From NCBI GenBank assembly GCA_963837175.1, contig CAWIMJ010000022.1:18826-82825 (forward strand): a DNA stretch of 64,000 bases, read 5' to 3'. Position numbers and translations under genes: made by a program. Numbering within the stretch: position 1 is the stretch's first letter; the number at the start of each line of letters is the position of its first letter. Positions 12,545 to 48,833 of the stretch are shown in pieces. The stretch is from an uncultured Nitrososphaeraceae archaeon (GTDB lineage Archaea; Thermoproteota; Nitrososphaeria; Nitrososphaerales; Nitrososphaeraceae). The notes below the pieces were generated by a model. It saw only the letters and a program-made list of their open reading frames with translations. It was not told the DNA's origin and did no database searches.

Positions 12545-15495
<2,951 letters not shown>

Positions 15496-15893: not shown

Positions 15894-17363
<1,470 letters not shown>

Positions 17364-30659: not shown

Positions 30660-31208
30660 TTACAACTCTTCCATCATTTCTGTATAATTATTCACAACTT
30701 TGTCTACAAAACTCTCTTGGTATTTGTATAATATATTCGCAATTGCCTCTCCATCTACAACTCTATAAAGCTGACGCTTCTCTCCAGGTATTATTGATAT
30801 TATTCCAGCATCCCTAAGCCGTTTCAGATACCATGAGACGGTAGATGGAGCTTTATTCACATGGTCAACTATTTCATTAAAGATACATGAATCATGTTGC
30901 AGTATGAATATCGCCATCTTCCTTGTAACCTTATTTCTGAAATAACCAATAATATCTGATTCTTCCTTTGGAATATTGACAATATAGTATCTCGTAACTC
31001 TGTTATTGTATCTATCGATCCTTATCTTACCCAGTCTTTCAAGTATTGTCAAATGATAACTCAATACTCCATTTTTTAATCGAGTTAAGCGTAAAAGCTC
31101 CTTGTATCTGATCCCTGGAGTTTTATAAATATTTTCTAAAATAACGCTTTTGGTATCGGGCTTGTTGATGTTTCTTGAAGTTATTTCTTCCTGTCTATAT
31201 AATATCAC
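30660..31208 (-). CDS. Double winged-helix transcription regulator (COG3398-like)
   Basis: IYKTPGIRYKEL..GVLSYHL and FNEI...APSTVSWYLKRL. Confidence 0.88.
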   Translation of the reverse strand: MILYRQEEITSRNINKPDTKSVILENIYKTPGIRYKELLRLTRLKNGVLSYHLTILERLGKIRIDRYNNRVTRYYIVNIPKEESDIIGYFRNKVTRKMAIFILQHDSCIFNEIVDHVNKAPSTVSWYLKRLRDAGIISIIPGEKRQLYRVVDGEAIANILYKYQESFVDKVVNNYTEMMEEL

Positions 31209-31624
31209 GATTTATTATTCACCCTAACAAATCCAATGCCAAATAAAGTAAGCATTACAAATAGAATTAAGTGTGGTATTTCTATATTAACTACGGGAAT
31301 TATTATATTTGTATCCTCTATTTCCATCATGGAATAAGATAGGTATAGGATTTCAATTACCACAAGTGAGAAGAAACCAAGGGTCATAAATAATAGCCTG
31401 GAACTACTCTTTCTCTTGTATGCAAGCGTTGATACAACGCTTAGAAAAACTGCTATAATGAGGCTTACTATATGAAGAAAAATGTGATAAATAATATTTG
31501 TATGTGTGATGTTTGGAAGAATTACAGGTATAGCGAGTATAGCAGTTATAGATACAGATATAATTAAAAATAATTTATATTTACTAGCTGTAATATTCTG
31601 TAAAGATGCCTTTCCTGACTGCAA
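31205..31624 (-). CDS. His-containing 4-TM membrane protein overlapping the wHTH gene
   Basis: THTNIIYHIFLH, AYKR..SRLLFMTLGF and IPHL; 4-nt overlap with the downstream regulator. Confidence 0.82.
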   Translation of the reverse strand: MQSGKASLQNITASKYKLFLIISVSITAILAIPVILPNITHTNIIYHIFLHIVSLIIAVFLSVVSTLAYKRKSSSRLLFMTLGFFSLVVIEILYLSYSMMEIEDTNIIIPVVNIEIPHLILFVMLTLFGIGFVRVNNKS

Positions 31625-31660: not shown

Positions 31661-31678
31661 TATGGTACAAATATCGAA
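31661..31678 (-). promoter_or_regulatory. Conserved 18-bp promoter motif, copy 1
   Basis: TTCGATATTTGTACCATA-GTA-TTTAAAT upstream of 31624. Confidence 0.7.
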
Positions 31679-32208: not shown

Positions 32209-32679
32209 AGCTCACGAATTATCAAGATTAATGATAATCAATCCAAGATCTTAAAACATATTGCTAAAACTCCAGGAGTTAGATATAGAGAGCTTTTAAG
32301 ATTAACAAGGCTAACCAACGGTGTACTTTCATATCATCTGAAAATTCTTGAGGAATCAAGAAGTATAAAAGTTAATAGAGAGGGGATTAAAATGACAAGG
32401 TATTATCCAAAAAATATCAAGACTAAAGAATTTCATGTTATAGCCTATACCAGAAATAGTACGGCTAGACAGATAATACAATTATTGCTTAAACAAGGCC
32501 ATTCTACTTTTAAAGATATTGTAAAACACACAAACAAAGTACCATCCACAATATCATGGCATCTGAAAAGACTTGAGAACGGGAAAATTATCTCAGTTAG
32601 TCACAAGAAATTTCATGTATATAGAATAAGGAATAAAGAGAAAGTAGGCGAAATAGTTGCCAAATATACAAATATATAG
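32209..32679 (+). CDS. Third COG3398-like wHTH regulator; 5' end disrupted or non-ATG start
   Basis: The frame is open from 32209 (ILKHIAKTPGVRYRELLRLT..GVLSYHL), a paralog of 30660-31208. In-frame TAA at 32206. Confidence 0.75.
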   Translation, partial: SSRIIKINDNQSKILKHIAKTPGVRYRELLRLTRLTNGVLSYHLKILEESRSIKVNREGIKMTRYYPKNIKTKEFHVIAYTRNSTARQIIQLLLKQGHSTFKDIVKHTNKVPSTISWHLKRLENGKIISVSHKKFHVYRIRNKEKVGEIVAKYTNI

Positions 32680-33127: not shown

Positions 33128-33913
33128 TTATTGAGGAGCTTTAACTGTTACCTTAAAAGAGTGATTTAGATCATATGCCCCATTTCTTTGTACAATAATC
33201 TTGATATCCCATTCACCAGGCTGGCTAATATAACCTCCCTCAGTGCCATATACTCCATTTTCAAGTTTATGCAAATTTGCAACAATTGGTCCTATTCCAG
33301 CTTGTTTGTCATTAAATTGCATTATGACATTCTTTATATTGGTAGGAGCCTTGCCTGATGCATCAGTAAGTGTTACATTGAATTTATTATTTATACCAGC
33401 ATACAATGGACTTATTTTATATTGCAAAGTTATATTATCGATCGTAACTTGATCGGAGAATGTATTATTTTTATTTGATAAGTTAGTTTGAGCAGCTGCT
33501 GCCTGTGCAGGTTTTATGGTAAATACATAAGAACCTTTTGTTATGTGTCCGTCATCACGAGAGAATGCAAGCCAGGAGACAGTATAAACTCCAGGTGTAA
33601 GTTTATTCTTATCTAGTGTAACAGTAGCTTGTCTACCATTTTGCCCTGTAATTGCATAATCATTATTATCTACCCGATTATTTTTGGCATCTGTTACATG
33701 TATATAGCTTGCTTTTGGTTCTGGCCTTTCTGAAAATGATATTACCACTTTTGTTGGCAGAGATCCATTTTGTACAATAATAGAATTTATTGCTGGAGAA
33801 TATGACACAGGAGATGCGTGACCATAAACATTACTTGAAAATGAGCTCACAATAACAGGAACTAGAAGCAATGTGATTATTGCATGACTTAGTGAAAAAT
33901 AATTTTTTTGCAT
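33128..33913 (-). CDS. copC: CopC domain plus YtkA/FixH-like Ig domain
   Basis: VYG|HASPVSYSP, FSE and YTVSW...DDGH motifs; C-terminal GIGPI..G.Y..QPGEWDI. Confidence 0.88.
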   Translation of the reverse strand: MQKNYFSLSHAIITLLLVPVIVSSFSSNVYGHASPVSYSPAINSIIVQNGSLPTKVVISFSERPEPKASYIHVTDAKNNRVDNNDYAITGQNGRQATVTLDKNKLTPGVYTVSWLAFSRDDGHITKGSYVFTIKPAQAAAAQTNLSNKNNTFSDQVTIDNITLQYKISPLYAGINNKFNVTLTDASGKAPTNIKNVIMQFNDKQAGIGPIVANLHKLENGVYGTEGGYISQPGEWDIKIIVQRNGAYDLNHSFKVTVKAPQ

Positions 33914-33947
33914 ATGAGATAAATATGTATATCTCAGTCTTAAACTT

Positions 33948-33965
33948 TATAGTACATCTCTCGAA
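33948..33965 (-). promoter_or_regulatory. Conserved 18-bp promoter motif, copy 2
   Basis: TTCGAGAGATGTACTATA-AAG-TTTAAG upstream of 33913. Confidence 0.7.
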
Positions 33966-34229
33966 TATTGAATAAAAGATATTATAAAAATTATAAAATG
34001 GATAATGTACTATCATCTTTCTATCTCTGCAAAAAGGTACCTGATGCTCTTATCATGCAATATATATTAAAAAACATGCTGAAGTAATTATCATTATTTT
34101 GCTGTTGCTGCAATGATAATTGGACTAATTTTATGGAATAGAATAAGATAAAAAAACTCATTAGAGCAGCATCATACACCCTACAATTCTTATTAAATAA
34201 AAAGACAACAGACTGAATATATATCTAAA

Positions 34230-34952
34230 TTAAGTACTTTTGCGAGAAAATGCCACGACTGCTATAACAATTCCTGCCACACCAACTCCCATTCCCGTTA
34301 TACCTATCAGGAAGGATTTATCTGCTGTCTTTTTCACATCTTGAAATGATTTCTGTATATTTGCATCATTTTTAGCTAAGGTATCTATATCACCTTTAGT
34401 AACATCAATATCGTTTGTTAATTGGCTGAGGATTCTTTCAACTTCTGCTCCAATGCTAGTGGCAGGAGTATTAGTATTAGTACCCTCACCAGTATTGCCA
34501 GAATCTGGAAAAGAGAGCTTTTGCTTACTTTCTACATCATCTAGGGGTATTTCAGCATTGACAATACTCTGTCCTTGTAATGTTCCATTCAATACCAAAC
34601 TATAAGATCCTAGTCTTGTTGGAATCATCTCAGCTTGATATAGTCCTGCTGACTGTTCTGATGGTTTAAAATCAAGAGTCTTTGTTACTCCACCGTATTT
34701 TACCAAGATATACATTTCAGCTAAGGCATTTCTTACTGGTGTAGAATTGCTCTCAGTTCCTTTGTTTACTTGAACAATAGCATTATTTATTTCACCAACA
34801 AGTGATGGCTCGTTACTCCAACCTACCTCCACTGTAAAATTACCAAATGTCTTTGATATGTGAGCATATACAGGAACCTGAGTACTAGATGCAAAAACAG
34901 TAATCAGCAATAACACAGCAATGATCATCAAGGGTATTATAATAAATTTCAT
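34230..34952 (-). CDS. Membrane-anchored exported protein with mature N-terminal His
   Basis: VYA|HISK, VGWSNEP, coiled-coil stalk, C-terminal TM; paralog of 45449-46117. Confidence 0.85.
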   Translation of the reverse strand: MKFIIIPLMIIAVLLLITVFASSTQVPVYAHISKTFGNFTVEVGWSNEPSLVGEINNAIVQVNKGTESNSTPVRNALAEMYILVKYGGVTKTLDFKPSEQSAGLYQAEMIPTRLGSYSLVLNGTLQGQSIVNAEIPLDDVESKQKLSFPDSGNTGEGTNTNTPATSIGAEVERILSQLTNDIDVTKGDIDTLAKNDANIQKSFQDVKKTADKSFLIGITGMGVGVAGIVIAVVAFSRKST

Positions 34953-35085
34953 TTTAGTATTGAAAAATACATATTGTTATATTATCATTTACGAAGAATC
35001 TTGATACTAATCTTTATTGTCTTTCATCGAAAATATACTATAAAAGGTAAAAATGCTATAAACTCAATACGCTATATACATTATT

Positions 35086-38000
35086 ATGAGAAGACATTTT
35101 GGAAGGTTACATTTCCATCATATCTTATGTCCTGTTATAGTGATTGCAGTATTATCAATTTTAATGTTAATTTCTTTACCATCCATACCTAAATCATATG
35201 CTCATGCTTTTGTAATGAATAGCAATCCATCGCCTTCACAAACTTTAGAGTCACCACCGACAAAAGTCGAAGTTTACCTTAGTGAACCAGTTGATCTAAG
35301 ATACAGTAAACTGAGTGTTATAGGTCAAGATGGAAAGCAGATAGACAACAAGAATGTACAATATGTTAACGGGGATCAAACTGCATTAACTGTTACTCTT
35401 CCCCATGATATTAAGGATGGATTGTACACAGTCTCTACAAAAATGCTCTCTCAAATAGATGGTCATGTTACAGACAATGCTTTTGTATTTGGAGTAGGTG
35501 AGGCAGAAATTCCAAATAATATTTCAAGTGAAGGTCTACAGTCTTCTTCTTCTCAACTATCAATACTTGATGCAATTGCAAGGTTCCCTGCATTGGTCGG
35601 TCAAGTCATGATTGTTGGTGCAGCATTTGCAAATCTATGGTTATGGAGACCTATGTCTAAAATTAATTGGTTGAAAAGTGCTTTTGCACAAACAAGGAAT
35701 AGAGTTGACAGGAGTTTAATAAAATTGATAGTAGTTGGTTCTGTTATACTAGTTTTATCTGATTTCGGCATGATTTATGTTCAAGCCTATTCCATCAATG
35801 CGGGAATAGCTGATGCTATTGCCACGAAGTTTGGCACTATATGGATTGTTAGAACTTTAGAATCTTTTGTAGTACTTGTTATTGCAGTAGTTATACACCT
35901 AAAGTTAAAAAAAACAAATTCTACAATTCCATCTAAGCAAGATATTTTGAGTATATTAGTAGTTGGCCTTGCAATGCTTGCGACTACTACTTTGATTGGA
36001 CACAGCTCTGCTGTTGGTAATGTAATACCAATTGCAATAGATTTTATGCATAATTTAGCAGCCTCGATATGGATTGGTTCTGTTATTTACCTCGCCTTTG
36101 TTGTAGTTCCAAAAATAAAGCAAGCACCTCTCGAGGAACACGTAAAAGCTTCAGTATTGTCAATCATAATTCCAAGATTTTCAACTATCCCGGTAGTGAT
36201 ACTAGGAATAATAGTAATTACAGGACCATTTCTGTTATACATTCTCGAAACTAATCTTGACTTAATTTTAGCATCTTTGTACGGAAAAGCGCTTATAGCA
36301 AAATTAGTACTCGCTGCAGTAATGATCAGTATCGGAGGATATAATCAGACAGTAATATACAGACAAGCCCTGAAGGTTGCTGCTATTGCTATGACTACTT
36401 CATCATCATCAACATCAATAACAACATCACCACCGACAAGAACTCTTAGTACTAGTAATAGAAGCAGCTCACTGAAAAGAAGACAAGGAGCACCCAAGCA
36501 AACACAAAATAACAATGACAAGGAATTGCCATCATCTTCCTCTTCCTCCTCCTCTTCTAATTCATACAGACATTATATTTCAAAGATGTCTACTGTTTCA
36601 AAATTAAACACGAGTACAAAGATTGAAGCAATTGTCGGAATCCTTCTACTTGTAGCTGTTGCTGTATTGGTTAATACAGGGTTGCCAGCAAGCGAGTTCC
36701 AGAACCAACAACAGATAATACAACAAAAGATACAAGCAGAGGCTCAGACTTTGTCCTCAAAAAATATAAAATACAACACATTTACATCTACAAAGTTCGT
36801 AGAAAATGGCACTAGAATCAAGCTATCAATAGATCCGTTTACTCCAGGTAATAACAATTTCAAAATATCATTTTTAGATCAAGACAGAAATCTTTTAGAT
36901 ATAAAGTCTGTGAAATTGAAACTAACCCAAATAGAACAAGGTATAGGTCCAATTGAAGTAGACACTAAACAGATTTCTAAAGGAATATTTTCTGCTAATG
37001 CTGCTTTTGGTTTATCTGGAGAATGGAACGTACTGGTCGAAGCATTTCAGAATAAGGCAAATTCGCTCAATGTTGTTGCAACCTATAATTTATTTGTGAA
37101 ACCCACGCTAGATCAAATGAAGTTTAATGTAAGGGAATTTAGAATAACTGGTAGTAATAATGATAGCCAACCTTTGTACCCTCTCTATGATAATAGTCGT
37201 AACGTAATATGGGTTGGAGATACAGTAATTGATAGCGGTAGAATATTTGAATTTAGCCTAAATTCAAATAAATTTACAGAACATAATATCAATGATACTA
37301 GTATTGTAACTGTTATGGCTTTGGACCATAATAATCAAATATGGTATGCTGACCCTTTAATGAGACACCTAGGACATTATGATCCAAATACCTATACAAA
37401 CCAAATATACAAAATTCCAAGTCCAGATTTCAGTCCATCTGGTATAGCCATAGATAGGAGTGATAACGTATGGCTTACATCTGCAAACACTAGTAGTATA
37501 TTGAGGTTTAACACTCAAGCTAAGAACTTCACAACCTTTCAGTCTCCAACTACAAATATAACTGCTGCATTAGATATTATGATAGATCCTTCAGATCAAA
37601 TATGGATTGCAGAAGGAGTAGGAAAACTAGCCAATATAGATCCAGCTAACAACTTTAATGTTACTGAATATTCTCCAAAAGGCAAAAACAATACCCTAGT
37701 TAATCCTATAGCATTGCTTGCTGATCCTATTACCGGCGATATTTATATATCGGAACATGATGGATATGCAGTATCAGTTTTCAATCCAGTAATAAAGACA
37801 TTTAAAGAATATCTACCTCTTAATTCAAATGGTAAGCCATTTGGAATGGCACTAGATAGCAATAAAAATTTGTGGATTGCTGAGCAAACTATAAACAAAA
37901 TAGCAATAATAGATCCCCGCACTGGTGAACATAAGGAAGTAACAATACCTTCACCAAGTCCATTCATCCAATGGCTAACTTCAGATTCCAGAGGGAACAT

Positions 38001-38298
38001 ATGGTTTGCAGAGCAACGAGGAGATTCCCTTGGTGTTATAACAATCAATGCTAATCCTTTACAATCTGGCTCCCCAGCAGGAGATACTACTGCTAATAGT
38101 TTAAGTAATAACAATCAATCCAGCAGTAATGGATATAATGGTTTTATTCCTCATCAATATGGTTTTAATTATACTGAAATCGTTGGTCCTGCAGTAGCTG
38201 CAGGTATAATAGCCAGTGCATTATTTTATACAAAAAGCATTACTGATTTAAGAAATAGCATGAAGCAAGCAAATAAAGGCGTTAACAGCAAGTGTTGA
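35086..38298 (+). CDS. CopC-CopD-YtkA-like-beta-propeller (Vgb/NHL-like) fusion with C-terminal TM
   Basis: SYA|HAFV...DGH, GHS and HNLAASIWIG, GEWNV, and repeated P.G.A.D...N.W.. blades. Confidence 0.9.
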   Translation: MRRHFGRLHFHHILCPVIVIAVLSILMLISLPSIPKSYAHAFVMNSNPSPSQTLESPPTKVEVYLSEPVDLRYSKLSVIGQDGKQIDNKNVQYVNGDQTALTVTLPHDIKDGLYTVSTKMLSQIDGHVTDNAFVFGVGEAEIPNNISSEGLQSSSSQLSILDAIARFPALVGQVMIVGAAFANLWLWRPMSKINWLKSAFAQTRNRVDRSLIKLIVVGSVILVLSDFGMIYVQAYSINAGIADAIATKFGTIWIVRTLESFVVLVIAVVIHLKLKKTNSTIPSKQDILSILVVGLAMLATTTLIGHSSAVGNVIPIAIDFMHNLAASIWIGSVIYLAFVVVPKIKQAPLEEHVKASVLSIIIPRFSTIPVVILGIIVITGPFLLYILETNLDLILASLYGKALIAKLVLAAVMISIGGYNQTVIYRQALKVAAIAMTTSSSSTSITTSPPTRTLSTSNRSSSLKRRQGAPKQTQNNNDKELPSSSSSSSSSNSYRHYISKMSTVSKLNTSTKIEAIVGILLLVAVAVLVNTGLPASEFQNQQQIIQQKIQAEAQTLSSKNIKYNTFTSTKFVENGTRIKLSIDPFTPGNNNFKISFLDQDRNLLDIKSVKLKLTQIEQGIGPIEVDTKQISKGIFSANAAFGLSGEWNVLVEAFQNKANSLNVVATYNLFVKPTLDQMKFNVREFRITGSNNDSQPLYPLYDNSRNVIWVGDTVIDSGRIFEFSLNSNKFTEHNINDTSIVTVMALDHNNQIWYADPLMRHLGHYDPNTYTNQIYKIPSPDFSPSGIAIDRSDNVWLTSANTSSILRFNTQAKNFTTFQSPTTNITAALDIMIDPSDQIWIAEGVGKLANIDPANNFNVTEYSPKGKNNTLVNPIALLADPITGDIYISEHDGYAVSVFNPVIKTFKEYLPLNSNGKPFGMALDSNKNLWIAEQTINKIAIIDPRTGEHKEVTIPSPSPFIQWLTSDSRGNIWFAEQRGDSLGVITINANPLQSGSPAGDTTANSLSNNNQSSSNGYNGFIPHQYGFNYTEIVGPAVAAGIIASALFYTKSITDLRNSMKQANKGVNSKC

Positions 38299-38793
38299 TT
38301 ATTAAGGCATAGGAGTAGTTAGTTGGTGTGCATTCTGCCGTATATCATGACGACTTTTAAGGAATTGCTTTTAATCTTAATGTTTGTTTTATATGTTATG
38401 TATATATTTATTTTTTGAAGGATACTACCTGTATCTTAATATAAAGAAGGGCTCTTTTAACTTTGCCATTATCAGTTAAGACTGCTATGAGTTTAACTCT
38501 ATCTGTTACCATATATAGAGATCAGTATATAGAGACACAAAATATATCCCGTATGCTATTACAGCTAGGCATGCTTCAGCTATAGACTATACCAATAAAA
38601 GAATTCACTTAAATTAACGAAGCCTAAATCACTCACTGCTACTTAGAAGAAGCATATTGGCAATAATAATAGCAGAGCAACAACAAGTATCGATAAAAAT
38701 TAATATGAAATAAAATGAGATGAGAATATCATCTTGTTGTAATTTTATAGTAATTATTTTTTATAATAAGATCGCTCTTCCTATTTTGACTTT

Positions 38794-39415
38794 TTATTGG
38801 CCCATTGCTGCAGTAGCGTTAGGGCTGATGTCATCTGCTGATTCATATTCTTCATACAAATGCAAAATTTTATCGACACCTATGGCCACTGTACCTCGTA
38901 TCTGGTAACTTTATATCATCCACTCCTGGATTTTTAATCACTATATCTGTAATTATAAATCCACCTTGTGGAGGCAAATCTATATGATACATGCATAGCT
39001 TACCTGGAGTTGATAGATTTTGCACTAGTTTTAATTCAGCTGGTTGTAGTTCAGGTATGGATCCTGTAAGTACAGTCAATGTAGAATTTGAATTATCATC
39101 ACATGGTATCTTTGCAGTGATATGTCCATTAACTATTGCATATGGTGCACTATCATAAAGTTGAATAAAACCACCTGCAGGAATTGTTTCATTTGAAAGG
39201 AGAATTGTAGAAGAGTCCCTTACTATTGTACCTTGCTGTTGTTTTGAACTTTCCTCTGCTATGCTACTAGGTTCTTCCATGGTGGTAGTATTTGTAGTTG
39301 TATTTGTAGTAGTCTCTTGTGCTACCGCAATATCTACAACTCTGTTTAACATAAAAACCATAGAAATTATAACTGCTATTAAAATGCCACTAACGAAAAA
39401 TCTTTTGTTTAGCAT
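38794..39415 (-). CDS. Exported His/Cys protein, paralog of 42944-43444, with a 1-nt frameshift near 38895
   Basis: VRDS, LYDS.PY.IVNGHI.AKIPC and LCMYH motifs. The shifted frame continues TVAIGVDKI, matching the paralog's TVVVGVNEI. Likely start ATG at 39415. Confidence 0.8.
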
Positions 39416-39448
39416 TAATGAATGGTCGTAGACATCATTTTTAAACTT

Positions 39449-39466
39449 TGTAGTACAACCATAAAA
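39449..39466 (-). promoter_or_regulatory. Conserved 18-bp promoter motif, copy 3
   Basis: TTTTATGGTTGTACTACA-AAG-TTTAAAA. A back-to-back plus-strand copy, TTCTATAAATGTACTATA, lies at 39471-39488. Confidence 0.6.
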
Positions 39467-40115
39467 CATATTCTATAAATGTACTATAAAATAAATAAAT
39501 GCATCAAAAGAATTACAAATAGTTTGGATTTGGATAATAATAGCAGTTGAACAACTATATATAGAAGACAATTCTTGGATTCATGTCTCATGAGAAAGAA
39601 ACATGCTTTTGTAGTTGCATAATAATTTCTGAGTTAGTTAGCAAGGGAACATAAAAATTGCTATTTAAATAGAAGCAGTGTAATATGGTTGATATCATGC
39701 CAAGTCTAAAATTTCTGAAAATAATAATGCATATCTAATCTCTTCATTATTCATATGGAAAAAGTGTCATATGAAAGAGAACAATCCAATAATTGAAGAA
39801 CAGAACTCAATGTTGTTGGTTATGCAATTAACAATAACCATTGACTATATATTGTTGCTACAATCAGGATGTATTCTCGTGACTTTAATAGGATATTCTT
39901 AGAGGGATATGGTAATATCAATCAATTTTTCTTTTGTTTCTTTAACTACATAAAGTCAATATCGATCTGGATGATGTCTCCGGATGACATCTCAGTTTTT
40001 TTGATGTAACTATGGTATGATGTGTTTGACCTATTTTGGCATATTCAACTCATCCACGATAATATTATAAAGGCCTGGCTTTGGATTATTATTTATGATC
40101 TTACAGAAGACACCA

Positions 40116-40350
40116 CTAGCCTAACTTAACGGAGCAGTATAAAATTAAAGAAATTGAAATAAAAGTAGATAGTTTTGATACATTTGCGTTTTGTATATTC
40201 TGTAATTCAGCTAATGATATCGTGAGCTCATTAGCAACTCGGTGATTTCTTTCTTCGATTTCTTTTATCCAAGTTTTATTTAGAAGTTCAACAACATTTT
40301 CTGCATGTTTTTGAACCAATGAAACGTTGTTGTTAGTTATGAACTCATCT
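40116..40350 (-). pseudogene. Fragment of a helical exported-protein gene next to an IS relic
   Basis: QKHAENVVELLNKTWIKEIEERN.RVANEL, with no intact start. Confidence 0.35.
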
Positions 40351-40426
40351 GGAAAGTAATTTGATATATTACTCTAGATTCTCTCACTCGCTTACCTATA
40401 GCTTAAATCATGTCTAATTGATGCTA

Positions 40427-40805
40427 GTGAGATTCGAAGAGCTAATGGATGATCATTGGAAGCTATTAGTACCATCAATTCCTGCTCCTGCTCATACTGG
40501 TAGACCTAGAGCTGATGATAGGAGTACTATCAATGGCATCTTGTATGTCCTTATGAGTGGATGTAGATGGATGGATGGATATGCCTCCAAAGTATAGCTC
40601 CTACAAAACAGTTTGGGAACGGCACAAGAAGTGGAGTATCAAAGGTGTATGGAAAAATATTATGAATTCCCTGGTATCACGTAGCTATGCTTCTGGATTG
40701 ATAAACATAGACTACCTATCTGTAGATAGCAGCACTGTAGGAGCCAAGAAAGGGGGCAAGAAATAGGCTTTGATGATGGTCATAAGCGGATGAAGGGAAG
40801 CAAGG
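40427..40805 (+). mobile_element. Truncated IS5-family transposase relic
   Basis: GRPRADDRSTINGILYVLMSGCRW, GGAT-duplication frameshift, then DSSTVGAKKGG and DGHKRMKGSK before truncation. Confidence 0.85.
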
Positions 40806-40931
40806 ACATTTTGCAAAGAATGGTGCAGCAGCCAACGCTGGATGAGTATAGAGGCCATCCACAATTACTAGTCCTAACAAGCCGAGTACTCCTACTATAG
40901 CAAAGATTGCCAACATTGTTTCTGTAGGCAT
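40805..40931 (-). pseudogene. Small secreted peptide gene cut by the IS5 relic
   Basis: MPTETMLAIFAIVGVLGLLGLVIV...ALAAAPFFAKCP runs into IS sequence. Confidence 0.35.
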
Positions 40932-41235
40932 CACTTGAGAATTGGTGGAATAATATATGAGTTTGTCGGTAAAACCGTTGTTAACAAGATAAAGAAAAGG
41001 TTTTACATTAGTTTGTGCATATCTTTTCTGCAAGAAGAGACGGAAGGTAAAAGAAAAGTAGGGTACTTTAATTAATACTTTTGAAGAAATTAGAAAATAA
41101 CAACAACAAAAGCAAATCTCGCAAATCCAAATAGAGCTAGCATTAACCTATAAGAAGTATTAGAATGTTTGATTTATTCAATTAGTAATTAAAAACCATA
41201 TCAAAGTAAAGTGTATCCGAATCAAATGATATCGG

Positions 41236-41817
41236 CTATAATCCTTTTGGGAAATGATAACTTGAGGGTATTGTATCTGGAGGCTTGCCGTAAACTATTG
41301 CAATCTCGTCATGGCTATTTAATTTTATATCTCTATAATCTACTGAACTTGCTTTGTTACCGTTTACGTATACGCTTAATGTGTTATTTTTATTGTTACT
41401 AACAATATTGTCAAATATCTGAGTATTGTTGAATTTTTCATTCCAAATATCAAAGAACTGTCCAAGGGTAAAGTTTCTATTTTCTGGTGATTCTATATGG
41501 ATAACTCCAGTATCATCGTGTGTATGCATCCAATAGAGGCATTTGCTAGGTATGATACCAATTTGAGAAGGGACGGTGTAATGTTTGCCGTTAATAAAGA
41601 TATCTAGATGTGCATGGATATGAAAAGTAAGATGTTCTATCACTTCACATCTTATATTGTCTATTCCTAATGAAGAAGACGATGCTGACGCTAACAATGT
41701 ATTTGGTGCCATAGTCGCAAATATTCCAACACCTACAAAAATTGCAATCAAAACACTCATAGTAATAATAGTCAATCTTTTGTAGTTTTTTTTGTTAGTG
41801 CTTGACCTGGGATGCAT
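41236..41817 (-). CDS. Membrane-anchored exported His-rich protein
   Basis: N-terminal TM, C...HLTFHIHAHL, CLYWMHTHDDTGVIHIE and FTLGQFF. Confidence 0.88.
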   Translation of the reverse strand: MHPRSSTNKKNYKRLTIITMSVLIAIFVGVGIFATMAPNTLLASASSSSLGIDNIRCEVIEHLTFHIHAHLDIFINGKHYTVPSQIGIIPSKCLYWMHTHDDTGVIHIESPENRNFTLGQFFDIWNEKFNNTQIFDNIVSNNKNNTLSVYVNGNKASSVDYRDIKLNSHDEIAIVYGKPPDTIPSSYHFPKGL

Positions 41818-42276
41818 ATAAAAACAGCGTTTATGCTAATCGTTTTTTAGAGATAAAAATGTTTTCTATAATAATTCATAGATATAAAAAGAATGTAAAC
41901 TATTGTAATATCGGAAGTTGGTTCCTATATAAATGTGGTAAAATATATTATCTATTCTAATATTATATTATTGCTGTTTAAACGAATATCTTTTGATATT
42001 GTTATATTTCAATGTACATCAATAGGACTCTAGTGTAATACAATGCATTGTATCAAATTTATCTAGCCAATCTCGTGAATGAAGATATGTCTCTGGAAGG
42101 AAAACTATGAGTAGATGCATAAGATTAGTTGTTGCCCCAATAGATAATATTGTTAATAGTATGTAACATATTAAAAATTAAATCGTGCCTAATCCATATT
42201 ACATAGTCGAAATAATTTGACTAATTGCGATAGTAATAATAAAAATCTTCTTGATACAATTTCAAATTACAAGTTA

Positions 42277-42888
42277 TTACTGCTTAATTCTTCCCGCTGA
42301 TTTTCTAGATGCATAATAATATATTAAACCAGCTGCAGTTATTGCAGTTATGATAGGTAATACAAAGTAAATTATGAATTCACTAAAAGATATTCCTACA
42401 GAAACATCATAATTAACAACTAATGGATTTTCTTCATATTTTGGATCTCCAGCTATTCTAGCCTGTAATATTACTTGATAATCAGCACTTTTGTTAAATA
42501 CATACGGAATAGTAATATCGCCAAATTCATGCAATCTGTAAGGAATATGTGCGACAACCTTATCTGGATTTTTTTCTTTTATTGTTAACGCTGCAAATAC
42601 ATTATAAACATCTGTATTGTTCTGTTGAATACTAAAGTTTAATTTGGTAGTAGAATTATCATCTGCTAATATAACAGAAGGAGAGGTTCGAAATTTTATT
42701 TGATATTTATCAATGTTTTTTATTGTTTGACCTCCGCCAAAAATATGGGCATCGGCAAGATTATTTCTTCCTTGGTGGTCCAAAGGATTAGTACCCAGAC
42801 TATTAATACTAAGAAGAATAAGAATGACATTGGTAACTATAAACAAATATAATAAATAAAAAAGAAATGAAAAAATAGTTTCTTTCAC
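42277..42888 (-). CDS. Exported Ig-like protein with ADA|H site and C-terminal TM
   Basis: LADAHIFGG, HEFGD and a C-terminal hydrophobic anchor. Confidence 0.8.
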   Translation of the reverse strand: MKETIFSFLFYLLYLFIVTNVILILLSINSLGTNPLDHQGRNNLADAHIFGGGQTIKNIDKYQIKFRTSPSVILADDNSTTKLNFSIQQNNTDVYNVFAALTIKEKNPDKVVAHIPYRLHEFGDITIPYVFNKSADYQVILQARIAGDPKYEENPLVVNYDVSVGISFSEFIIYFVLPIITAITAAGLIYYYASRKSAGRIKQ

Positions 42889-42943
42889 ATACTTTTAGTG
42901 ACTCATTGCGTCATTTTAGGATACTGGTAGTATCTTTCGTTCA

Positions 42944-43444
42944 TTATTGATGTTCTTCAGCGCCAGGCATTATTTCATTGACACCTACAACCACTGTACT
43001 AGTCTCTGGAAAGTCTATACTACTGTCAGTCGGGTTCTGAATAGCTATATCAGTAGTAGTTGTCACATTTTTCTGTGGAATGTCAACGTGATACAAGCAT
43101 AGTTCACCTGGTGTGGACAAATTCCCATCAATTAATTCTAATTCAGCTGGTTGAAATGATGGTGCCGATCCTGTAAGTATATTTAATTCAGCCTCTGAAT
43201 CATCATTACATGGTATCTTTGCAGCTATATGTCCATTCACTATCTTGTATGGGCTACTATCATAAAGGTGTATGTAACTCATTGCTGGAATCGATTGGCC
43301 GGAAAGAAGCAATGTAACAGTGTCTCTTACTACTGTACCTGTGGGTGCTTGAGCTGTAGCAGGAGTTGTACTTGCAGTATTCATGAATACCATAGATGTT
43401 ATTACTGCTGCTAAAACAGCTATCAATGATTTCTTGTTTTGCAC
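42944..43444 (-). CDS. Secreted His/Cys protein
   Basis: Signal peptide, YIHLYDS..NGHIAAKIPC and LCLYH. Confidence 0.88.
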   Translation of the reverse strand: MQNKKSLIAVLAAVITSMVFMNTASTTPATAQAPTGTVVRDTVTLLLSGQSIPAMSYIHLYDSSPYKIVNGHIAAKIPCNDDSEAELNILTGSAPSFQPAELELIDGNLSTPGELCLYHVDIPQKNVTTTTDIAIQNPTDSSIDFPETSTVVVGVNEIMPGAEEHQ

Positions 43445-43477
43445 AAAAATTGGTTCTTACGTCTTATATATAACTGT

Positions 43478-43495
43478 TATAGTACATCTATTGAA
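43478..43495 (-). promoter_or_regulatory. Conserved 18-bp promoter motif, copy 4
   Basis: TTCAATAGATGTACTATA-ACAG-TTATATAT upstream of 43444. Confidence 0.7.
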
Positions 43496-43847
43496 TAGAA
43501 CTATCGTCTTTAGCTGAGTAGATTATATGCCTATTCTACCGCATTTCTTAAATGTCAGACAATATAACAATTAACAGAGTTAGGAAATACAGAATAAAGG
43601 ATTACTTGATAATTATCATCTCGCTAATGTGATCGAAGAAGAATAAGGAGTGATACAGTCAACTAATGACACATCTTTTTTCTCCTAGTGGTTGCCACCA
43701 ATAAAAAATTGTATTCAGGATTTGTTGAAAAAAATTAAAATCGTCTATCATTTATATCATTATGATATTTCACTAATATGAGAATATAGTCATCTTTAAA
43801 TTTTCTATTATTTTGACATTAGTAGGATTTTCAGAAATTCTATTGAC

Positions 43848-45356
43848 TTAATGATTAGCTTGCAAAGAATCTAATGTTTTCTTTATCTCTCGTTTACTCC
43901 TTACAAAAGATATAATACTTCCCGTCAAAACTGCTGCCGATAAAATGATAACCAGAATAGCAAACGCGTCAAAAGATGGCATTTCATTTTTAGTAGTAGT
44001 AGAAGTAGCTAATCCGTTTAAATTAGAATTTTCTGCCATTGACACAGATGGTGGCGAAGTTATTGTAAGAAACGAAGTTATAAAGAGAATACCCATACCT
44101 ATAAATGATTCAATCCTGATAGTCTTACTAAATTTTGCAAATGGATCGGCTTGTAGTGAATTGCTGCCGCCAGATGTAGTTGCTGCTGAACTACGCTTGT
44201 TATCATTTGATTTTTTTCCCCCTTTACCAATTTTAGCAACTAATACAAAGCTATCATGGAGTCTAAATTGATGATAACCACCAAGGATAACCATAGGCAA
44301 AATAGCAGACAGCTTAATTATTAGAACGTTCCCATACATGGTATCAAAAATTGCTCCGACTGTATGAAGATGGATCCAAGCCATATATAGTCCTGTTACA
44401 CCAATTATACCAAGTGAAATTGTAGCTATGAGAGAAAAATATGGAAGTAATACAGCAAGAAAATAAGTATTTCTTGTTTTATTAGTTTCATATTGCTGGT
44501 TTACAGGTTCAGTTAGATTTATTGTTGATCTTATTGTGACTAAAAGTATGACAGAAATATAAAATACGCCTCCAACCCAGATAGATACTGCCATAAAATG
44601 CAGCCAGTTTATTGAGATGGCTAATGACGGAAGGAATGATAATGCGGCACTATGGCTGACTACACTGTTAGAGAAGATGCTTATTGCGCCTGACAGTATT
44701 ATAACATATAATAATACTATAGAAAGACTCAGATTTCTTTTCCTTTGTTTACTGTACGTATGATGCTCTTCTTCGGTTGTCCTTTTAATTTTCTTCTTTT
44801 CCAAAATGTAATACAATATAGAGGATACGACAATTATCGATGAAGTTATAATCCTTAATATCCAAACTGGTCCCACAGAAGTAGTGGTCAATATTGTAAA
44901 AGTGGTACTGACATCCAAGCCTAATTCTGAAGACATACTGATTGTTTGTAGATATATCAAAGAGCTTGCGGTAACCAGTATAGTTAGACTACATACAACA
45001 AGTAGAATGAACAATCTCCTTAAAGGCTGCAAACTACTACTACTATTATCCACGGGCACGTTATTTTTGTAATTTGGTTGAATTCTACTCCGTAGTACTC
45101 TGTGTAGAAATACATGATTAAATACTCCTCCTACTATGGCTGCCTGGGATATCATCATTGGTGCTTTCAGTAAAGCATCGTAAGTGGAGGTAACCGACTC
45201 TATATGAGTAGAGTCAAGGCCATCCTGAGCGTGAACTGTAGTAGGTAGGAAACTCGTAGGCATCAAAATAAAGGATATTATAATAACTAATATTCCTGCT
45301 ATTATCATAAAATTGTTCATCATGAGAGTTTTTTTTCGATGTGTTTCAGTTTCCAT
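43848..45356 (-). CDS. copD: CopD-family copper uptake membrane protein
   Basis: SHSAA, WLHFMAVSIWVGG, TGLY, YG..LIIK and GGYHQ motifs. Confidence 0.88.
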   Translation of the reverse strand: METETHRKKTLMMNNFMIIAGILVIIISFILMPTSFLPTTVHAQDGLDSTHIESVTSTYDALLKAPMMISQAAIVGGVFNHVFLHRVLRSRIQPNYKNNVPVDNSSSSLQPLRRLFILLVVCSLTILVTASSLIYLQTISMSSELGLDVSTTFTILTTTSVGPVWILRIITSSIIVVSSILYYILEKKKIKRTTEEEHHTYSKQRKRNLSLSIVLLYVIILSGAISIFSNSVVSHSAALSFLPSLAISINWLHFMAVSIWVGGVFYISVILLVTIRSTINLTEPVNQQYETNKTRNTYFLAVLLPYFSLIATISLGIIGVTGLYMAWIHLHTVGAIFDTMYGNVLIIKLSAILPMVILGGYHQFRLHDSFVLVAKIGKGGKKSNDNKRSSAATTSGGSNSLQADPFAKFSKTIRIESFIGMGILFITSFLTITSPPSVSMAENSNLNGLATSTTTKNEMPSFDAFAILVIILSAAVLTGSIISFVRSKREIKKTLDSLQANH

Positions 45357-45448
45357 TTCTCATACTTAAGTAATACACATGCTGAATGATAAAAAAGGAA
45401 AAATTAAGTTCTCTTTGTGATTTCATGATTTTTGCTCATTTACTCTTT

Positions 45449-46117
45449 TTATTTCATACCAGTTGAATTTTCAGATCTGGACAGCATCTTTTGTATCTCT
45501 ACATTAGACATATATGGTTCTGGAAATCCAGCATCAGTTCTTGGAAGAGGACATCCAAAACTTCCCATTATTGACTTTCTTGTTACTCCTTGTGACAGTT
45601 GCGTTGTAGAATTGTCTGAAATAGGAGTTTCATCTCCTCCCGCTGGACTACAAGTCCATGTTGCATTAAATGCAGTACCATTAATGTCTCCGAATAGACG
45701 ATAATTATATGTAGTTTCTATTGTTGGAAAGAATGGTGCTTCATAATGACCTGGATCTCTGAATGCAGGTTCAAAATCTAGTGTCTTGTTCTTATCACCG
45801 GCAGATATCTCTACTTTTAACATTTTTTCTAATCCTTCTATAGGTCTTGTTCCATTTGCTTGGGAATTTACAGGATCAGATGCATTAGGCCAATAAGCAA
45901 ATAATTCTACCCCAGACTTGTCATCAACAAAAACTGGTTCATTCACAGATCCAACCGCAAACAAATAATCTTTGTCTCCTATTGTAAACAACTGCCTTTG
46001 ATGAGCAAATGCAAATTGCGTATTTACTACTGATGCAAATAATAGTAGTGTGCCAGTAGCAATCGCGCTAAAAATAACTGTATGTGGATTTATCATTGCA
46101 GCAGTATCACGAATCAT
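45449..46117 (-). CDS. Secreted protein with mature N-terminal His (likely start 46096)
   Basis: AFA|HQRQLF, VGSVNEP, KTLDFEP..GHY..PT; Cys pair at the C-terminus. Confidence 0.85.
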   Translation of the reverse strand: MIRDTAAMINPHTVIFSAIATGTLLLFASVVNTQFAFAHQRQLFTIGDKDYLFAVGSVNEPVFVDDKSGVELFAYWPNASDPVNSQANGTRPIEGLEKMLKVEISAGDKNKTLDFEPAFRDPGHYEAPFFPTIETTYNYRLFGDINGTAFNATWTCSPAGGDETPISDNSTTQLSQGVTRKSIMGSFGCPLPRTDAGFPEPYMSNVEIQKMLSRSENSTGMK

Positions 46118-46132: not shown

Positions 46133-46150
46133 TATGGTACAACTATCGAA
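46133..46150 (-). promoter_or_regulatory. Conserved 18-bp promoter motif, copy 5
   Basis: TTCGATAGTTGTACCATA-TAT-CTTAAATA. Confidence 0.7.
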
Positions 46151-47603: not shown

Positions 47604-48833
47604 TCAAGGAGGAGGAGGCTGGTAAGCATTAATCTGTTGGAGAGAAAGAGCATGATTATCATCTAATGCTCCAACACCCAAACTTAGATTTCTTATCGTT
47701 ATGTCGAGAGTTTTACTTTGTTCTAAGCTTAAAGCAAATTCCTTCATCAGAACACTTCTTACCTGTTGATCAGGATTTACTGTTTCATTTGTCCTTATTG
47801 GTACTGTAACGCTAAGTATCTTTGATATTATATCTTTAGGGATCTTTCCGCTTTCATGTTCTTTGTTTATACTATATTCGATAAGCTGTAATATTATTTC
47901 CCTGCTTGCAACCTTTAGCGCATTTACAGTATAGATAGCATCTACACTAAGTACGTTTAGAGATTCGTCTTGTGCTCCAGATATGGTATTTAAAACTCCT
48001 TCCCTGCTAGATGATATAGATCCAAGTATAGAGGAATCCACATCAACATTTATCGTCATTATACCTTCAAAGAATTTTTCTCCGGTATCATTTGCATATA
48101 TTGGGATAGATGCCTGGATATCTTTGCAGCTGAGACTGACTGAGCCTCCTGGCTCTAAATTACGAATTCTAAAATTAGTATCACTTTGTTCTGGACTTGT
48201 TGATACTGCCTTCCAAAAAAAAGAAATTGGGAAACTTTGTCTATTGAATATATTAATGTCTGAATTATAGCGCCCAGGTCTCAAAGGTCCTTGTTCTCCA
48301 GTTATTGTACCGCAAATGAATCTTGCTGTATATTCAAGTTTAGTTGAATCGGAGTTAAGTGGATATCCTTCAAACATTACTGTTGTTGGGGATGATGAGA
48401 TGGATTGTGTGTTAATACTAACAGTTTTTACGGAAATGTCTTTGATGTATCCATCTGGAGCAACAATTTCAGAGATTGTATATTGTCTGGGGATTATGTT
48501 AGAAAGAAGCACTACGCCCGAAGTTCTATTTGCATCCTCGGCATTATCATCAGTAACAGCCAAGTTGCTTCCGTTTGTGAATGGATTTGGAGTTATTAGA
48601 AAAGTTGCCCCACCAATTGTATTATTCTTTTCATCTACTTTTTCTATTATAAGTGAGGGCGACGACAATGTCGTATTATTAGATGATAACGATAAATTTC
48701 TATTCAAAGATTCTGCAAATACATTCTTATTATTACTTCCACCAATAATATCTGCAATTTTACCATTATCTAAATTGGTATCATCAGAATACTGGTTGAT
48801 AAAAACAAAAGTAAGCACAAAGCCAAAACACAT
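47604..48833 (-). CDS. Exported protein with SpaA/CnaB-like domain plus a domain of unknown function
   Basis: IEKVDE..GGATF and YTISEIVAPDGY, then YTARFICG..GPLRPGRYNSDINIFN. Confidence 0.8.
   Translation of the reverse strand: MCFGFVLTFVFINQYSDDTNLDNGKIADIIGGSNNKNVFAESLNRNLSLSSNNTTLSSPSLIIEKVDEKNNTIGGATFLITPNPFTNGSNLAVTDDNAEDANRTSGVVLLSNIIPRQYTISEIVAPDGYIKDISVKTVSINTQSISSSPTTVMFEGYPLNSDSTKLEYTARFICGTITGEQGPLRPGRYNSDINIFNRQSFPISFFWKAVSTSPEQSDTNFRIRNLEPGGSVSLSCKDIQASIPIYANDTGEKFFEGIMTINVDVDSSILGSISSSREGVLNTISGAQDESLNVLSVDAIYTVNALKVASREIILQLIEYSINKEHESGKIPKDIISKILSVTVPIRTNETVNPDQQVRSVLMKEFALSLEQSKTLDITIRNLSLGVGALDDNHALSLQQINAYQPPPP

Follow-up and report, generated by a model that had tools for sequence, protein, structure and literature searches.

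Two families of exported proteins with a predicted N-terminal histidine in a putative copper-acquisition gene cluster of a Nitrososphaeraceae archaeon

What purpose is served by a run of neighboring genes whose exported products all appear to begin with histidine? The question arises from a 64,000-nucleotide stretch of DNA (here called the window) from an uncultured Nitrososphaeraceae archaeon (GenBank assembly GCA_963837175.1, contig CAWIMJ010000022.1, positions 18,826 to 82,825), in which five genes between positions 33128 and 46117 place His directly after a signal-peptidase-like site. A sequence-only reading had drawn attention to these genes, taking two of them for CopC and the other three for candidate new copper-binding families that feed CopD importers. 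We computed gene content, the conservation of His and Glu residues, predicted folds, synteny, and cis-elements. The results make it reasonably probable that the stretch is a copper-acquisition gene cluster resembling YcnKJI, in which proteins with His as first mature residue (His1) handle Cu(II). The earlier interpretation as a whole was partly supported.

All five open reading frames (ORFs) were present, with predicted cleavage sites (slashes; judged from sequence) at SSNVYG/HASPV in a 261-amino-acid (aa) protein, QVPVYA/HISKT (240 aa), PKSYA/HAFVM (1070 aa), NNLADA/HIFGG (203 aa), and TQFAFA/HQRQL (222 aa). The assignment of two of them to CopC held, as the 261-aa (33128-33913, minus strand) and 1070-aa (35086-38298, plus strand) proteins scored 58.5 and 55.0 bits against a Pfam cut-off of 23.3. 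The other three lie outside CopC, as had been claimed: the 240-, 203-, and 222-aa proteins gave no CopC match and fell into no curated family of Pfam or NCBIfam. They represent two families rather than three, since the 240-aa protein (P0001; 34230..34952, minus strand) and the 222-aa protein (P0003; 45449..46117, minus strand) are paralogues (29% identity over 143 residues, E 7e-9, His residues aligned). We refer to this family as FamA and to that of the 203-aa protein (P0002; 42277..42888, minus strand) as FamB.

Of 4016 heuristic sites in a crude scan of the whole genome, 38 (0.9%) have His at +1; four of these 38 fall within this 13-kb stretch. The 203-aa protein was missed by the scan because its hydrophobic core lies far from the site. 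Nine proteins encoded between 33128 and 46117 have a hydrophobic segment at the N-terminus, and in five of them His stands at +1, a run that is not chance.

FamA proved to be a very large family. Searches of metagenomes at E<=1e-3 returned 326 relatives of P0001 and 716 of P0003, and a 19-member FamA profile matched at least 1709 representative clusters at E<=1e-3, 991 of them at E<=1e-10, in a library clustered at 50% identity. Conservation was counted over 150 listed representatives aligned to the family hidden Markov model, with denominators given by the sequences covering each position. At the predicted cleavage site, His was present in 132 of 133 sequences, the sole exception (P0454) having Tyr. 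Position -1 was Ala in 127 of 133, and position -3 was Ala, Val, Ser, Ile, or Thr in 131 of 133. Seventeen residues after the His, Glu48 (P0001 numbering) was found in 135 of 136 sequences and followed by Pro49 in 136 of 136; Gly44 (133 of 136) and Tyr105 (139 of 142) were also nearly fixed. The same picture emerged from an alignment of 116 full-length members selected from the 150. Retention of His at the predicted cleavage site across family alignments thus agrees with what had been anticipated for His1. A second His near His1, as proposed for a brace, was not found: neither the FamA nor the FamB alignment contains another invariant or near-invariant His, and a classical two-His brace of the lytic polysaccharide monooxygenase (LPMO) type is therefore not supported. 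The conserved partner in FamA is instead Glu, a sequence pattern like that of the mono-histidine brace of YcnI. Together, the invariant His at +1 of AxA and the invariant Glu-Pro are the sequence signature of a putative metal site of the terminal-amine type. As a separate observation, 27 of the 132 His1-bearing representatives (within P0367-P0516) also carry His at +3 (H-x-H, often A/HEH), which would add an X-X-His site of the amino-terminal Cu(II)- and Ni(II)-binding (ATCUN) type; both window proteins lack it.

An AlphaFold2 (AF2) model of P0001, built from the 116-member alignment, had a mean predicted local distance difference test score (pLDDT) of 89.3. In this model the signal peptide is followed by a beta-sandwich at residues 31-145 (pLDDT >=94 in most blocks), which a disordered linker connects to a long helix (residues 167-238) ending as a membrane anchor. 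Chloroflexota members likewise have a C-terminal hydrophobic helix, whereas P0003, which also carries a signal peptide ahead of its His39, combines the same sandwich with a Cys pair and no anchor. Since strands 32-36 and 39-45 of P0001 form the first hairpin, His31 would lie opposite Gly44, and with Glu48-Pro49 in the next loop His31 and Glu48 would probably be close in space. Searching with this model, Foldseek returned filamin and immunoglobulin (Ig) domains together with Helicobacter pylori CrdA (E 3e-4). A wide structural search also ranked CrdA first (Z 10.5, root-mean-square deviation 2.3 Å, 98 residues aligned), with further matches to DUF4426 (Z 9.1), HftA (Z 8.3), FtrA-P19 (Z 8.1), Tp34 (Z 7.4), and CopC (Z 7.2). 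These matches are periplasmic sandwich proteins with roles in metal handling. By hhalign the closest named family was YtkA-like (probability 72%, E 3.5e-5, 65 columns, FamA against 11 YtkA domains). No Pfam family above cut-off was found in 26 FamA representatives scanned, and the FamA profile run against all Protein Data Bank (PDB) sequences recovered no solved relative, giving either coiled-coil, transmembrane, or filamin noise or nothing; the FamB profile likewise gave such noise or nothing. The ESM Atlas yielded only clusters labeled "hypothetical" or "filamin repeat", and a neighboring cluster carried YtkA in 12% of its members. Complex prediction with the CopC domain (40-140) and the FamA domain (31-150) returned no answer (score 0.00), a result that counts neither way.

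That the non-CopC genes are tied to CopD-type importers, as had been suggested, was borne out by conserved synteny and by a common promoter element. For bacteria, a five-sequence alignment of bacterial FamA yielded 163 relatives in species-representative genomes, from which 80 loci were kept. Nearly all of these are Chloroflexota, with a few labeled Saccharimonadales, Acidiferrales, or Proteobacteria, and each locus has one match, with no tandem FamA copies in the 80. ORF calling and Pfam analysis of 24 Chloroflexota-type loci located a gene with both CopC and CopD (CopCD) directly downstream on the same strand in 20. Such a gene was not confirmed by Pfam in L014, L030, L042, and L074 (loci are labeled L), and a BLAST pass showed that a shorter CopCD-like ORF does adjoin FamA in L042. 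Extended to all 80 loci, BLAST identified a CopCD-like sequence adjacent to or overlapping FamA in 56, within 2 kb in 3, and not at all in 11, while 10 had less than 1.5 kb of downstream sequence; adjacency thus holds in 56 of 70 judgeable loci. The bacterial CopC-CopD partners often also carry YtkA/FixH, and of the 20 that Pfam confirmed, 11 have cytochrome c as their last domain (e.g. L006, L008, L010, L013, L015, L018, L032, L040, L059, L080), which suggests a redox step coupled to copper handling. At one locus of a Limnocylindria metagenome-assembled genome (L024:6187-9504, plus strand), a single 1105-aa frame spans the FamA match and CopC-CopD-YtkA, either as a true fusion or as an ORF-calling artefact.

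A similar association was observed in archaea. Relatives of P0001 occur in 56 of 121 sampled genomes of the class, including 54 of 54 genomes of family f2 and the single genome of f3, and in 0 of 64 genomes from nine other families. None was found at E<=1e-5 in G120, the sole other sampled genome of the window's own family, which does carry the P0003 branch. Among 20 loci from 20 archaeal genomes of the same order, FamA abuts a CopCD gene of 910-990 aa in 15, mostly in divergent orientation, and lies one or two genes away in three (L093, L094, L095). The two unlinked cases have an adjoining IS110 transposase (L098) and a subtilase neighbor (L110). The P0003 branch is narrower: at E<=1e-15 it turned up in three genera, in 5 of the order's 81 genomes. 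Its arrangement recurs nonetheless: P0003 followed on the same strand by a CopC-less CopD of about 494 aa is found in L129 and L132, a CopC-YtkA gene stands divergently beside FamA in L129, L131, and L132, and in L130 and L134 FamA stands before or beside a CopCD fusion.

Both CopC proteins of the island resemble known Cu(II) binders. In each, the His directly following VYG or SYA is position 1 of the Pfam CopC profile. The 261-aa protein (33128..33913, minus strand) is an exported CopC and YtkA-like protein with His32 as predicted first mature residue (Pfam CopC 1.4e-15, residues 32-133 on profile positions 1-92); its C-terminal part (145-250) is YtkA-like, with an hhalign probability of 97.9% against 11 YtkA domains. 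The 1070-aa protein (35086..38298, plus strand), encoded divergently from P0001, is a CopC-CopD-YtkA-beta-propeller fusion with His40 as predicted first mature residue. It matched CopC (1.7e-14, residues 40-137), CopD (6.9e-9), Vgb_lyase (4.6e-22), and SGL (5.1e-10), with a YtkA match (7.4e-4) below the Pfam cut-off and an NCBIfam CopD match (7.4e-20) below cut-off. Across 19 CopC domains from this and related genomes, H40 is invariant and D125, G126, and H127 are kept at 90% or more; the DGH motif is also retained in the 261-aa protein. By these motifs, both domains are predicted to be of the ordinary Cu(II) type (C0-1 type site). The second importer candidate is a stand-alone CopD membrane protein of 502 aa (43848..45356, minus strand; Pfam CopD 2.3e-17) without a CopC match. 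The P0003 gene ends 92 nucleotides (nt) before it on the same strand, and this position directly upstream of a CopC-less CopD suggests that P0003 may supply the missing copper-binding head.

FamB presents a weaker case than FamA for the same His1 idea. Its window member, P0002, consists of an N-terminal hydrophobic segment, ADA/His48, an Ig-like sandwich at 55-165, and a C-terminal membrane helix. We found 156 relatives at E<=1e-3, all named ones being Nitrososphaeraceae, and the family occurs in 47 of 61 sampled Nitrososphaeraceae genomes (a tally including one unpublished genome, G154) and in 16 of 18 genera. Ala47-His48-Ile49-Phe50 is invariant in 19 aligned members. The 15-20 residues between hydrophobic core and site contain several invariant residues, which is unusual for the c-region of a signal peptide. 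Of 15 Nitrososphaeraceae homologues, 14 keep His after a small-x-small motif (AYA, AYG, VSG, ASG, AHA, VYG), and L122 has Cys-His. Short signal peptides of canonical form occur in several homologues (e.g. L126, L123, L128) and in a 176-aa relative encoded in L095. Given the conserved small-x-small/H motif and these short signal peptides, His1 is supported as the mature N-terminus of FamB despite the long spacer of the window copy. The AF2 model of P0002 (mean pLDDT 78.3) has a confident sandwich at 55-165 and a C-terminal helix at 168-197. Its structural matches included CrdA (Z 11.4) and the soluble domain of PmoD (Z 10.2) as well as DUF4426, HftA, Tp34, and P19; Z values near 10 were reached by many unrelated Ig and macroglobulin domains as well. 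By hhalign, FamA and FamB aligned with a probability of 33% and with their AxA/H sites in register, while FamB against the 11 YtkA domains gave nothing. Eight of 14 FamB loci lie inside a cluster of CopCD, FamA, and regulator genes (L117, L119, L120, L123, L124, L126, L127, L128), with the order CopCD-FamA-FamB in L123, L127, and L128; the L117 match has an internal stop and was not recovered as an ORF. The window's genome contains two further FamB copies, at C10:939-1556 and C7:5968-7071. The latter (plus strand) encodes a 367-aa protein with a canonical signal peptide (SYA/H), a FamB-like sandwich (35% identity to P0002 over 47-150), and a C-terminal polytopic membrane domain of about five predicted helices. 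Similar ORFs of 370-430 aa are present in many Nitrososphaeraceae genomes.

A shared cis-element connects these genes. Comparison of the 150 nt upstream of island genes revealed an 18-bp sequence, TTCRAKAKWTGTACYATA, just upstream of a TATA-like box in four units, all on the minus strand: TTCGATATTTGTACCATA (31661..31678), 36 nt upstream of the start of a membrane-partner gene that precedes a regulator gene; TTCGAGAGATGTACTATA (33948..33965), 34 nt upstream of CopC-YtkA; TTCAATAGATGTACTATA (43478..43495), 33 nt upstream of the P0004-FamB unit; and TTCGATAGTTGTACCATA (46133..46150), upstream of P0003-CopD. We infer that P0003 translation starts at Met8 (46096), which would give a spacing of 36 nt and bring all four element-to-start distances to 33-36 nt. 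A weaker inverted copy lies at 39471-39488 (plus strand), next to the P0005 start. With one mismatch allowed, the pattern TTCRANNNNTGTACYATA had five matches in the window against 0.22 expected, a number that none of 100 shuffles reached. Exact matches in the 3.81-Mb assembly numbered four, all in the island, against 0.4 in shuffles. Since this pattern came from the same four sites, leave-one-out matrices were run. Each time, the omitted site was the best genome position after the three training sites (21.6-25.3 bits), with the weaker inverted P0005 copy as runner-up (16.4-18.8 bits).

The element extends to other genomes. Applied to 40 loci (571 kb) from other genomes of the order, the window-trained matrix found 19 sites of at least 14.5 bits, 12 of them of at least 17 bits; the window's own genome outside the island has about 12 sites of at least 14.5 bits per 3.8 Mb and none of at least 17. 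For 16 of the 19 sites, an ORF of 60 aa or more begins 18-49 nt downstream. Ten of these ORFs are recognized orthologues, namely of CopCD (L094, L120), CopC-YtkA (L131, L132), FamA (L103, L107), P0004 (L095), and the membrane partner (L094, L119). Five others (L093, L094, L095, L119, L128) encode another exported family beginning AYA/H-x-F-x-G-D-E-S. This family, extended as AYA/H-x-F-x-G-D-E-S-A-S, has no Pfam match (L093:7748-8767, minus strand; L094:7704-8603, minus; L128:13110-14039, plus; a 278-aa ORF in L119; L095:4915-6351, plus), and in two genomes its gene sits between FamA and CopCD. A 260-aa ORF of the window's genome with VYG/HYFSKDDRASFL (C50, near 100867) may be its local member. 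In Nitrososphaera viennensis, a motif, TTCSGSMTTTGWACYANT, is reported 35-70 nt upstream of genes induced by copper limitation, among them copC/D_b, an ArsR-family operon, and exported proteins of unknown function, and the copC/D cluster with its ArsR-family gene is itself described as induced by copper limitation (PMC7785015). The site at 31661..31678 matches TTCSGSMTTTGWACYANT with three mismatches; it was one of three such window matches, and it led to the island-specific element. By sequence, the 18-bp element resembles the N. viennensis motif.

Among known systems, the closest parallel is the ycnKJI locus of Bacillus subtilis. In YcnI, a signal peptide precedes His27, the first mature residue; Glu50 serves as an oxygen ligand with Trp137 nearby, and a transmembrane helix lies at the C-terminus. 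The ycnI gene is reported to adjoin those of the regulator YcnK and the importer YcnJ, a CopC-CopD-YtkA protein (10.1101/2021.06.11.448128). Cu(II) exchange is described between YcnI and the CopC domain of YcnJ, and both proteins are needed under copper limitation (10.1101/2025.05.23.655588). FamA resembles YcnI (DUF1775, PF07987) in the conserved His straight after the signal peptide, the Glu about 20 residues on (His27/Glu50 in YcnI, His31/Glu48 in FamA), the extracytoplasmic beta-sandwich with a C-terminal membrane helix (P0001), and a gene adjoining a CopC-CopD-YtkA importer and a helix-turn-helix (HTH) regulator. It differs in having no DUF1775 match, an Ig/YtkA/CopC-like predicted fold, and no evident counterpart of the conserved Trp; P0003 additionally lacks the anchor and carries its Cys pair. 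FamA also occurs in archaea, Chloroflexota, and other phyla outside those listed for DUF1775 in the account of YcnI (10.1101/2021.06.11.448128). We file it as a putative YcnI analogue, not as a DUF1775 member. The type of system is already known: an exported His1 protein, a CopC-CopD importer, and an HTH regulator form the B. subtilis ycnKJI layout.

Other comparisons were more distant. FamA and FamB share the sandwich fold class of CopC (PF04234), and the best structural match of each is the CopC-like CrdA, but both lack a CopC match and a second conserved His or DxH motif. YtkA-like domains (PF13115), the C-terminal domain of YcnJ-type CopCD, are closest by profile, belong to the same Ig-like class, and occur in the same operons. 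FamA has no such Pfam match, however, and YtkA is an internal domain rather than a mature N-terminus, without the N-terminal His strand or the Glu-Pro motif. The sandwiches of PmoD/AmoD and of P19/Tp34 are similar (PmoD Z 10.2 with FamB; HftA, P19, and Tp34 Z 7.4-10.1), yet identities are 8-14%, no ligand motif is common, and the Z values fall in the range of unrelated Ig domains. PmoD also has a C-terminal membrane helix. A further parallel is offered by the signal-strapping His1 metal binders DUF4198, DUF6702, and the "anglerases" Ang-1 and Ang-2, in which a signal peptide is described as exposing His1 on a beta-sandwich that serves a membrane permease, with a mono-histidine brace in Ang-1 like that predicted for FamA (PMC12537917). 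The FamB paralogue at C7:5968-7071, fused to a polytopic membrane domain, recalls the Ang domains. The partner here is CopD, not a HupE/UreJ or TonB system, and the taxa are different; the Pfam models of DUF4198 and DUF6702 matched neither the window proteins nor the 26 FamA representatives.

Our data suggest the following model. Signal-peptide cleavage would leave His as the first residue of all five proteins. A first module comprises CopC-YtkA and FamA-P0001, both on the minus strand and transcribed away from the CopC-CopD-YtkA-propeller fusion on the plus strand. A second, entirely on the minus strand, runs from FamA-P0003 through the CopC-less CopD and P0004 to FamB-P0002, with the winged-helix regulator and its small membrane partner at the left edge of the island. 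In the CopC domains, the known Cu(II) site would be made up of His1 and the Asp and His of the DGH motif. FamA could build a YcnI-like mono-histidine-brace Cu(II) site on its Ig-like sandwich from the free amine and imidazole of His1 and the invariant Glu 17 residues downstream. FamA may then capture or buffer Cu(II) and exchange it with the CopC domain of CopCD, and the soluble P0003 may take the place of CopC at the CopD that lacks it. FamB, a second and lineage-restricted His1 sandwich of the same topology, probably has a similar accessory role. The 18-bp element common to four transcription units is probably the operator of the neighboring regulator and may link the island to the copper-limitation response of N. 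viennensis. Signal-peptide cleavage, copper binding, copper transfer, the direction of transport, and the identity of the regulator that binds the element are the steps that we infer.

Several observations weigh against this model. Trp45 is present in only 73 of 136 FamA sequences, so that YcnI's Cu-cushioning Trp has no clear counterpart. The DUF1775 model matched neither P0001 nor P0003 at E<=0.1 and none of 26 FamA relatives at E<=0.01, and YcnI, whose solved structure has a cupredoxin-type fold, was not among the 50 best structural matches (lowest listed Z 6.9, an absence that excludes nothing); the likeness to YcnI is for both reasons one of analogy. The FamA structural matches reflect a common Ig-like fold, for which Z values of 7-10 are near background in such searches. 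For FamB, the segment 29-52 including His48 has pLDDT <50, no acidic or His partner is conserved at the position seen in FamA, and cleavage at ADA/H is less certain in the 203-aa window copy because the hydrophobic core ends about 19 residues earlier. In 6 of 14 FamB loci the flanking sequence examined, on contigs that are in some cases short, holds no copper genes. The TTCRANNNNTGTACYATA pattern was derived from the four sites that it describes, TTCSGSMTTTGWACYANT with up to three mismatches is not enriched in the window (3 matches against 2.9 expected), and the intergenic region common to P0001 and CopCD has no strong copy of the element. CopCD may here import copper or detoxify it.

Four other explanations were weighed. 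The generic Ig-like fold, the profile alignment with YtkA-like domains, and the YtkA content of the neighboring Atlas cluster would all fit FamA and FamB being metal-free accessory or scaffold domains of the CopCD machinery, diverged copies of the YtkA-like Ig domain already present in CopCD proteins, with a His that serves folding, processing, or protein contacts rather than copper binding. The aligned YtkA domains have neither the N-terminal His nor the Glu, however, and a free N-terminal His is reported to chelate metal by itself (PMC12537917). With His at +1 of AxA in 132 of 133 sequences and an invariant Glu-Pro, the signature expected of a terminal-amine metal site, we regard a metal-free role as unlikely. 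A metal site need not be a copper site: the His1 proteins could bind Ni, Fe, or Zn, or take part in a redox step such as Cu(II) reduction, instead of acting as Cu(II) chaperones. DUF4198, also an exported His1 sandwich, is reported to prefer Ni(II) (PMC12537917); the structural matches HftA, FtrA-P19, and Tp34 deal with iron in addition to copper or other metals; and the cytochrome c domain on 11 of 20 confirmed Chloroflexota partners hints at redox chemistry. But the conserved partner genes are CopC and CopD rather than Ni or Fe transporters, plastocyanin-like proteins are among the neighbors in related genomes, and the promoter element resembles the reported copper-limitation motif (PMC7785015), so that this alternative, too, has a low probability in our estimation.

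If copper is the metal, the cluster could still serve tolerance by sequestering it at the surface rather than scavenging and importing it. CopC and CopD are named after copper resistance, and it has been proposed that YcnI possibly holds Cu(II) back from the importer (10.1101/2025.05.23.655588). Against this stand the induction of N. viennensis copC/D by copper limitation (PMC7785015) and the impaired growth of B. subtilis under copper limitation upon loss of YcnJ or YcnI (10.1101/2025.05.23.655588). The window also has no efflux ATPase or multicopper oxidase by Pfam scans of its ORFs; the earlier remark that an efflux ATPase is missing agrees with the lack of any P-type ATPase among 43 ORFs scanned (30 of at least 110 aa outside the island and 13 in or beside it). 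We consider a tolerance function quite improbable. In favor of mere coincidence among unrelated exported proteins, His is reported at +1 in 2.6% of signal-peptide proteins in the SignalP training set (PMC12537917), and the five proteins are not independent because two are CopC domains and two are paralogues. Yet the His is kept family-wide, with no loss in most orthologues, linkage to CopCD is a conserved feature in two domains of life, and the common cis-element has no other copies in the genome. Coincidence is accordingly a very remote prospect, and copper acquisition by His1 proteins is the reading that we retain.

A broader interpretation, to which we give slightly less than even weight, is that FamA consists of Cu(II) chaperones with a mono-histidine brace and is a very large family so far without a name. 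This family would fill the YcnI role where DUF1775 was not found, as in this genome (a whole-genome search gave no match, while a control search recovered the B. subtilis member), or is unreported for the phylum: that is, in essentially all sampled genomes of the order's two main ammonia-oxidizer families, in Chloroflexota, and in some other bacterial phyla. P0003 would replace CopC as donor for a CopC-less CopD. With FamB, the AYA/H-x-F-x-G-D-E-S family, and the winged-helix regulator acting on the 18-bp operator, FamA would then belong to an archaeal copper-limitation regulon that feeds copper-dependent ammonia oxidation.

Three aspects appear to be new. FamA is a very large family without annotation, in which the His1-Glu pair is invariant and whose genes are linked to CopCD in both archaea and bacteria; FamB is a second, lineage-specific His1 family; and the cis-element is specific to the cluster. 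The literature that we searched on histidine-brace proteins, YcnI, and ammonia-oxidizing archaea and Chloroflexi, which did not extend to subscription journals or the supplements of PMC7785015, held no description of FamA. Orthologues of the present genes may already figure in those supplements, under the Cu-induced "exported proteins of unknown function". For trace-copper capture, published work goes as far as "CopC/D plus exported proteins of unknown function" (PMC7785015), and FamA, which every one of the 55 genomes sampled from two families of the order contains, is a candidate identity for those exported proteins. The paradigm set by YcnI and YcnJ, in which one surface protein hands Cu(II) to another, would be extended beyond the phyla with reported DUF1775, and P0003 is suggested as a partner for CopC-less CopD, a gap noted for Nitrosopumilus maritimus in the N. 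viennensis study (PMC7785015). The "signal peptide + His1" metalloproteins, whose number is growing, would gain a large family in FamA. The surprise is moderate because the kind of system is known; the value lies in the large unannotated family.

The remaining genes complete a single functional neighborhood of twelve ORFs at 30.6-46.2 kb of the window, and the closest database proteins are labeled Nitrososphaeraceae or Thermoproteota archaeon. At the left edge lies the 182-aa two-domain winged-helix protein (HVO_0163-N plus ArsR/HTH_24; 30660..31208, minus strand; Pfam HTH_24 5.3e-12, HTH_5 1.2e-11, HTH_HVO_0163_N 1e-9), a candidate Cu-responsive regulator of the island. Its gene overlaps that of a small polytopic membrane protein of 139 aa (31205..31624, minus strand), without a Pfam family above cut-off, with which it is presumably co-transcribed. 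Regulator orthologues adjoin CopCD in L093, L094, L100, L117, L119, L127, L132, and L134; the membrane partner is conserved with the regulator next to CopCD in L093, L094, and L100, and occurs there alone in L108. A short ArsR-type HTH protein of 95 aa follows at 32392..32679 (plus strand; Pfam HTH_5 8.9e-9, HTH_24 1.6e-8).

Three further exported or membrane proteins, like P0001, P0002, and P0003, have no family above cut-off in Pfam or NCBIfam. P0004 (166 aa; 42944..43444, minus strand), encoded 55 nt upstream of FamB on the same strand, and P0005 (199 aa; 38870..39469, minus strand) are paralogous exported proteins with a conserved Cys pair, and their mature N-terminus is not His. A P0004 orthologue stands beside FamA in L095 and beside the regulator in L119, and P0005-related ORFs occur within the CopCD clusters of other genomes (L093, L124). 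P0006 (193 aa; 41236..41817, minus strand) is membrane-anchored and His-rich (HLTFHIHAH ... WMHTHDD ... HIE). Related ORFs were found in the CopCD-cluster loci L120 and L131, and its ESM Atlas neighbors are unnamed clusters of Actinomycetota and Nitrososphaerota.

Pieces of IS4/IS5-type transposases (DUF4096 and DDE_Tnp_1) occupy two adjacent ORFs at 22235-22944 (plus strand), and a DUF4096 fragment below cut-off (E 3.8e-7) lies at 40557-40766 (plus strand) between the two copper modules; these pieces suggest past rearrangement of the island. A jump in G+C to 0.48 is explained by an archaeal 23S-16S ribosomal RNA (rRNA) operon at 12527-17363 (minus strand), which is adjoined by a third, very short CopD-domain ORF outside the island (10989-11486, minus strand; 165 aa, Pfam CopD 1.7e-14). 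On the island's flank, at 47604-48833 (minus strand), a 409-aa protein has a SpaA/prealbumin-like domain (7.8e-10), and related ORFs occur near FamA and CopCD in L093, L108, and L109. Further along the window, 58721-59365 (minus strand) encodes a plastocyanin-like protein of 214 aa (1.1e-6), and cupredoxin/plastocyanin-domain genes lie one or two genes from FamA in related genomes (L096:7679-8824, L098:7635-8528, L099:8598-9518).

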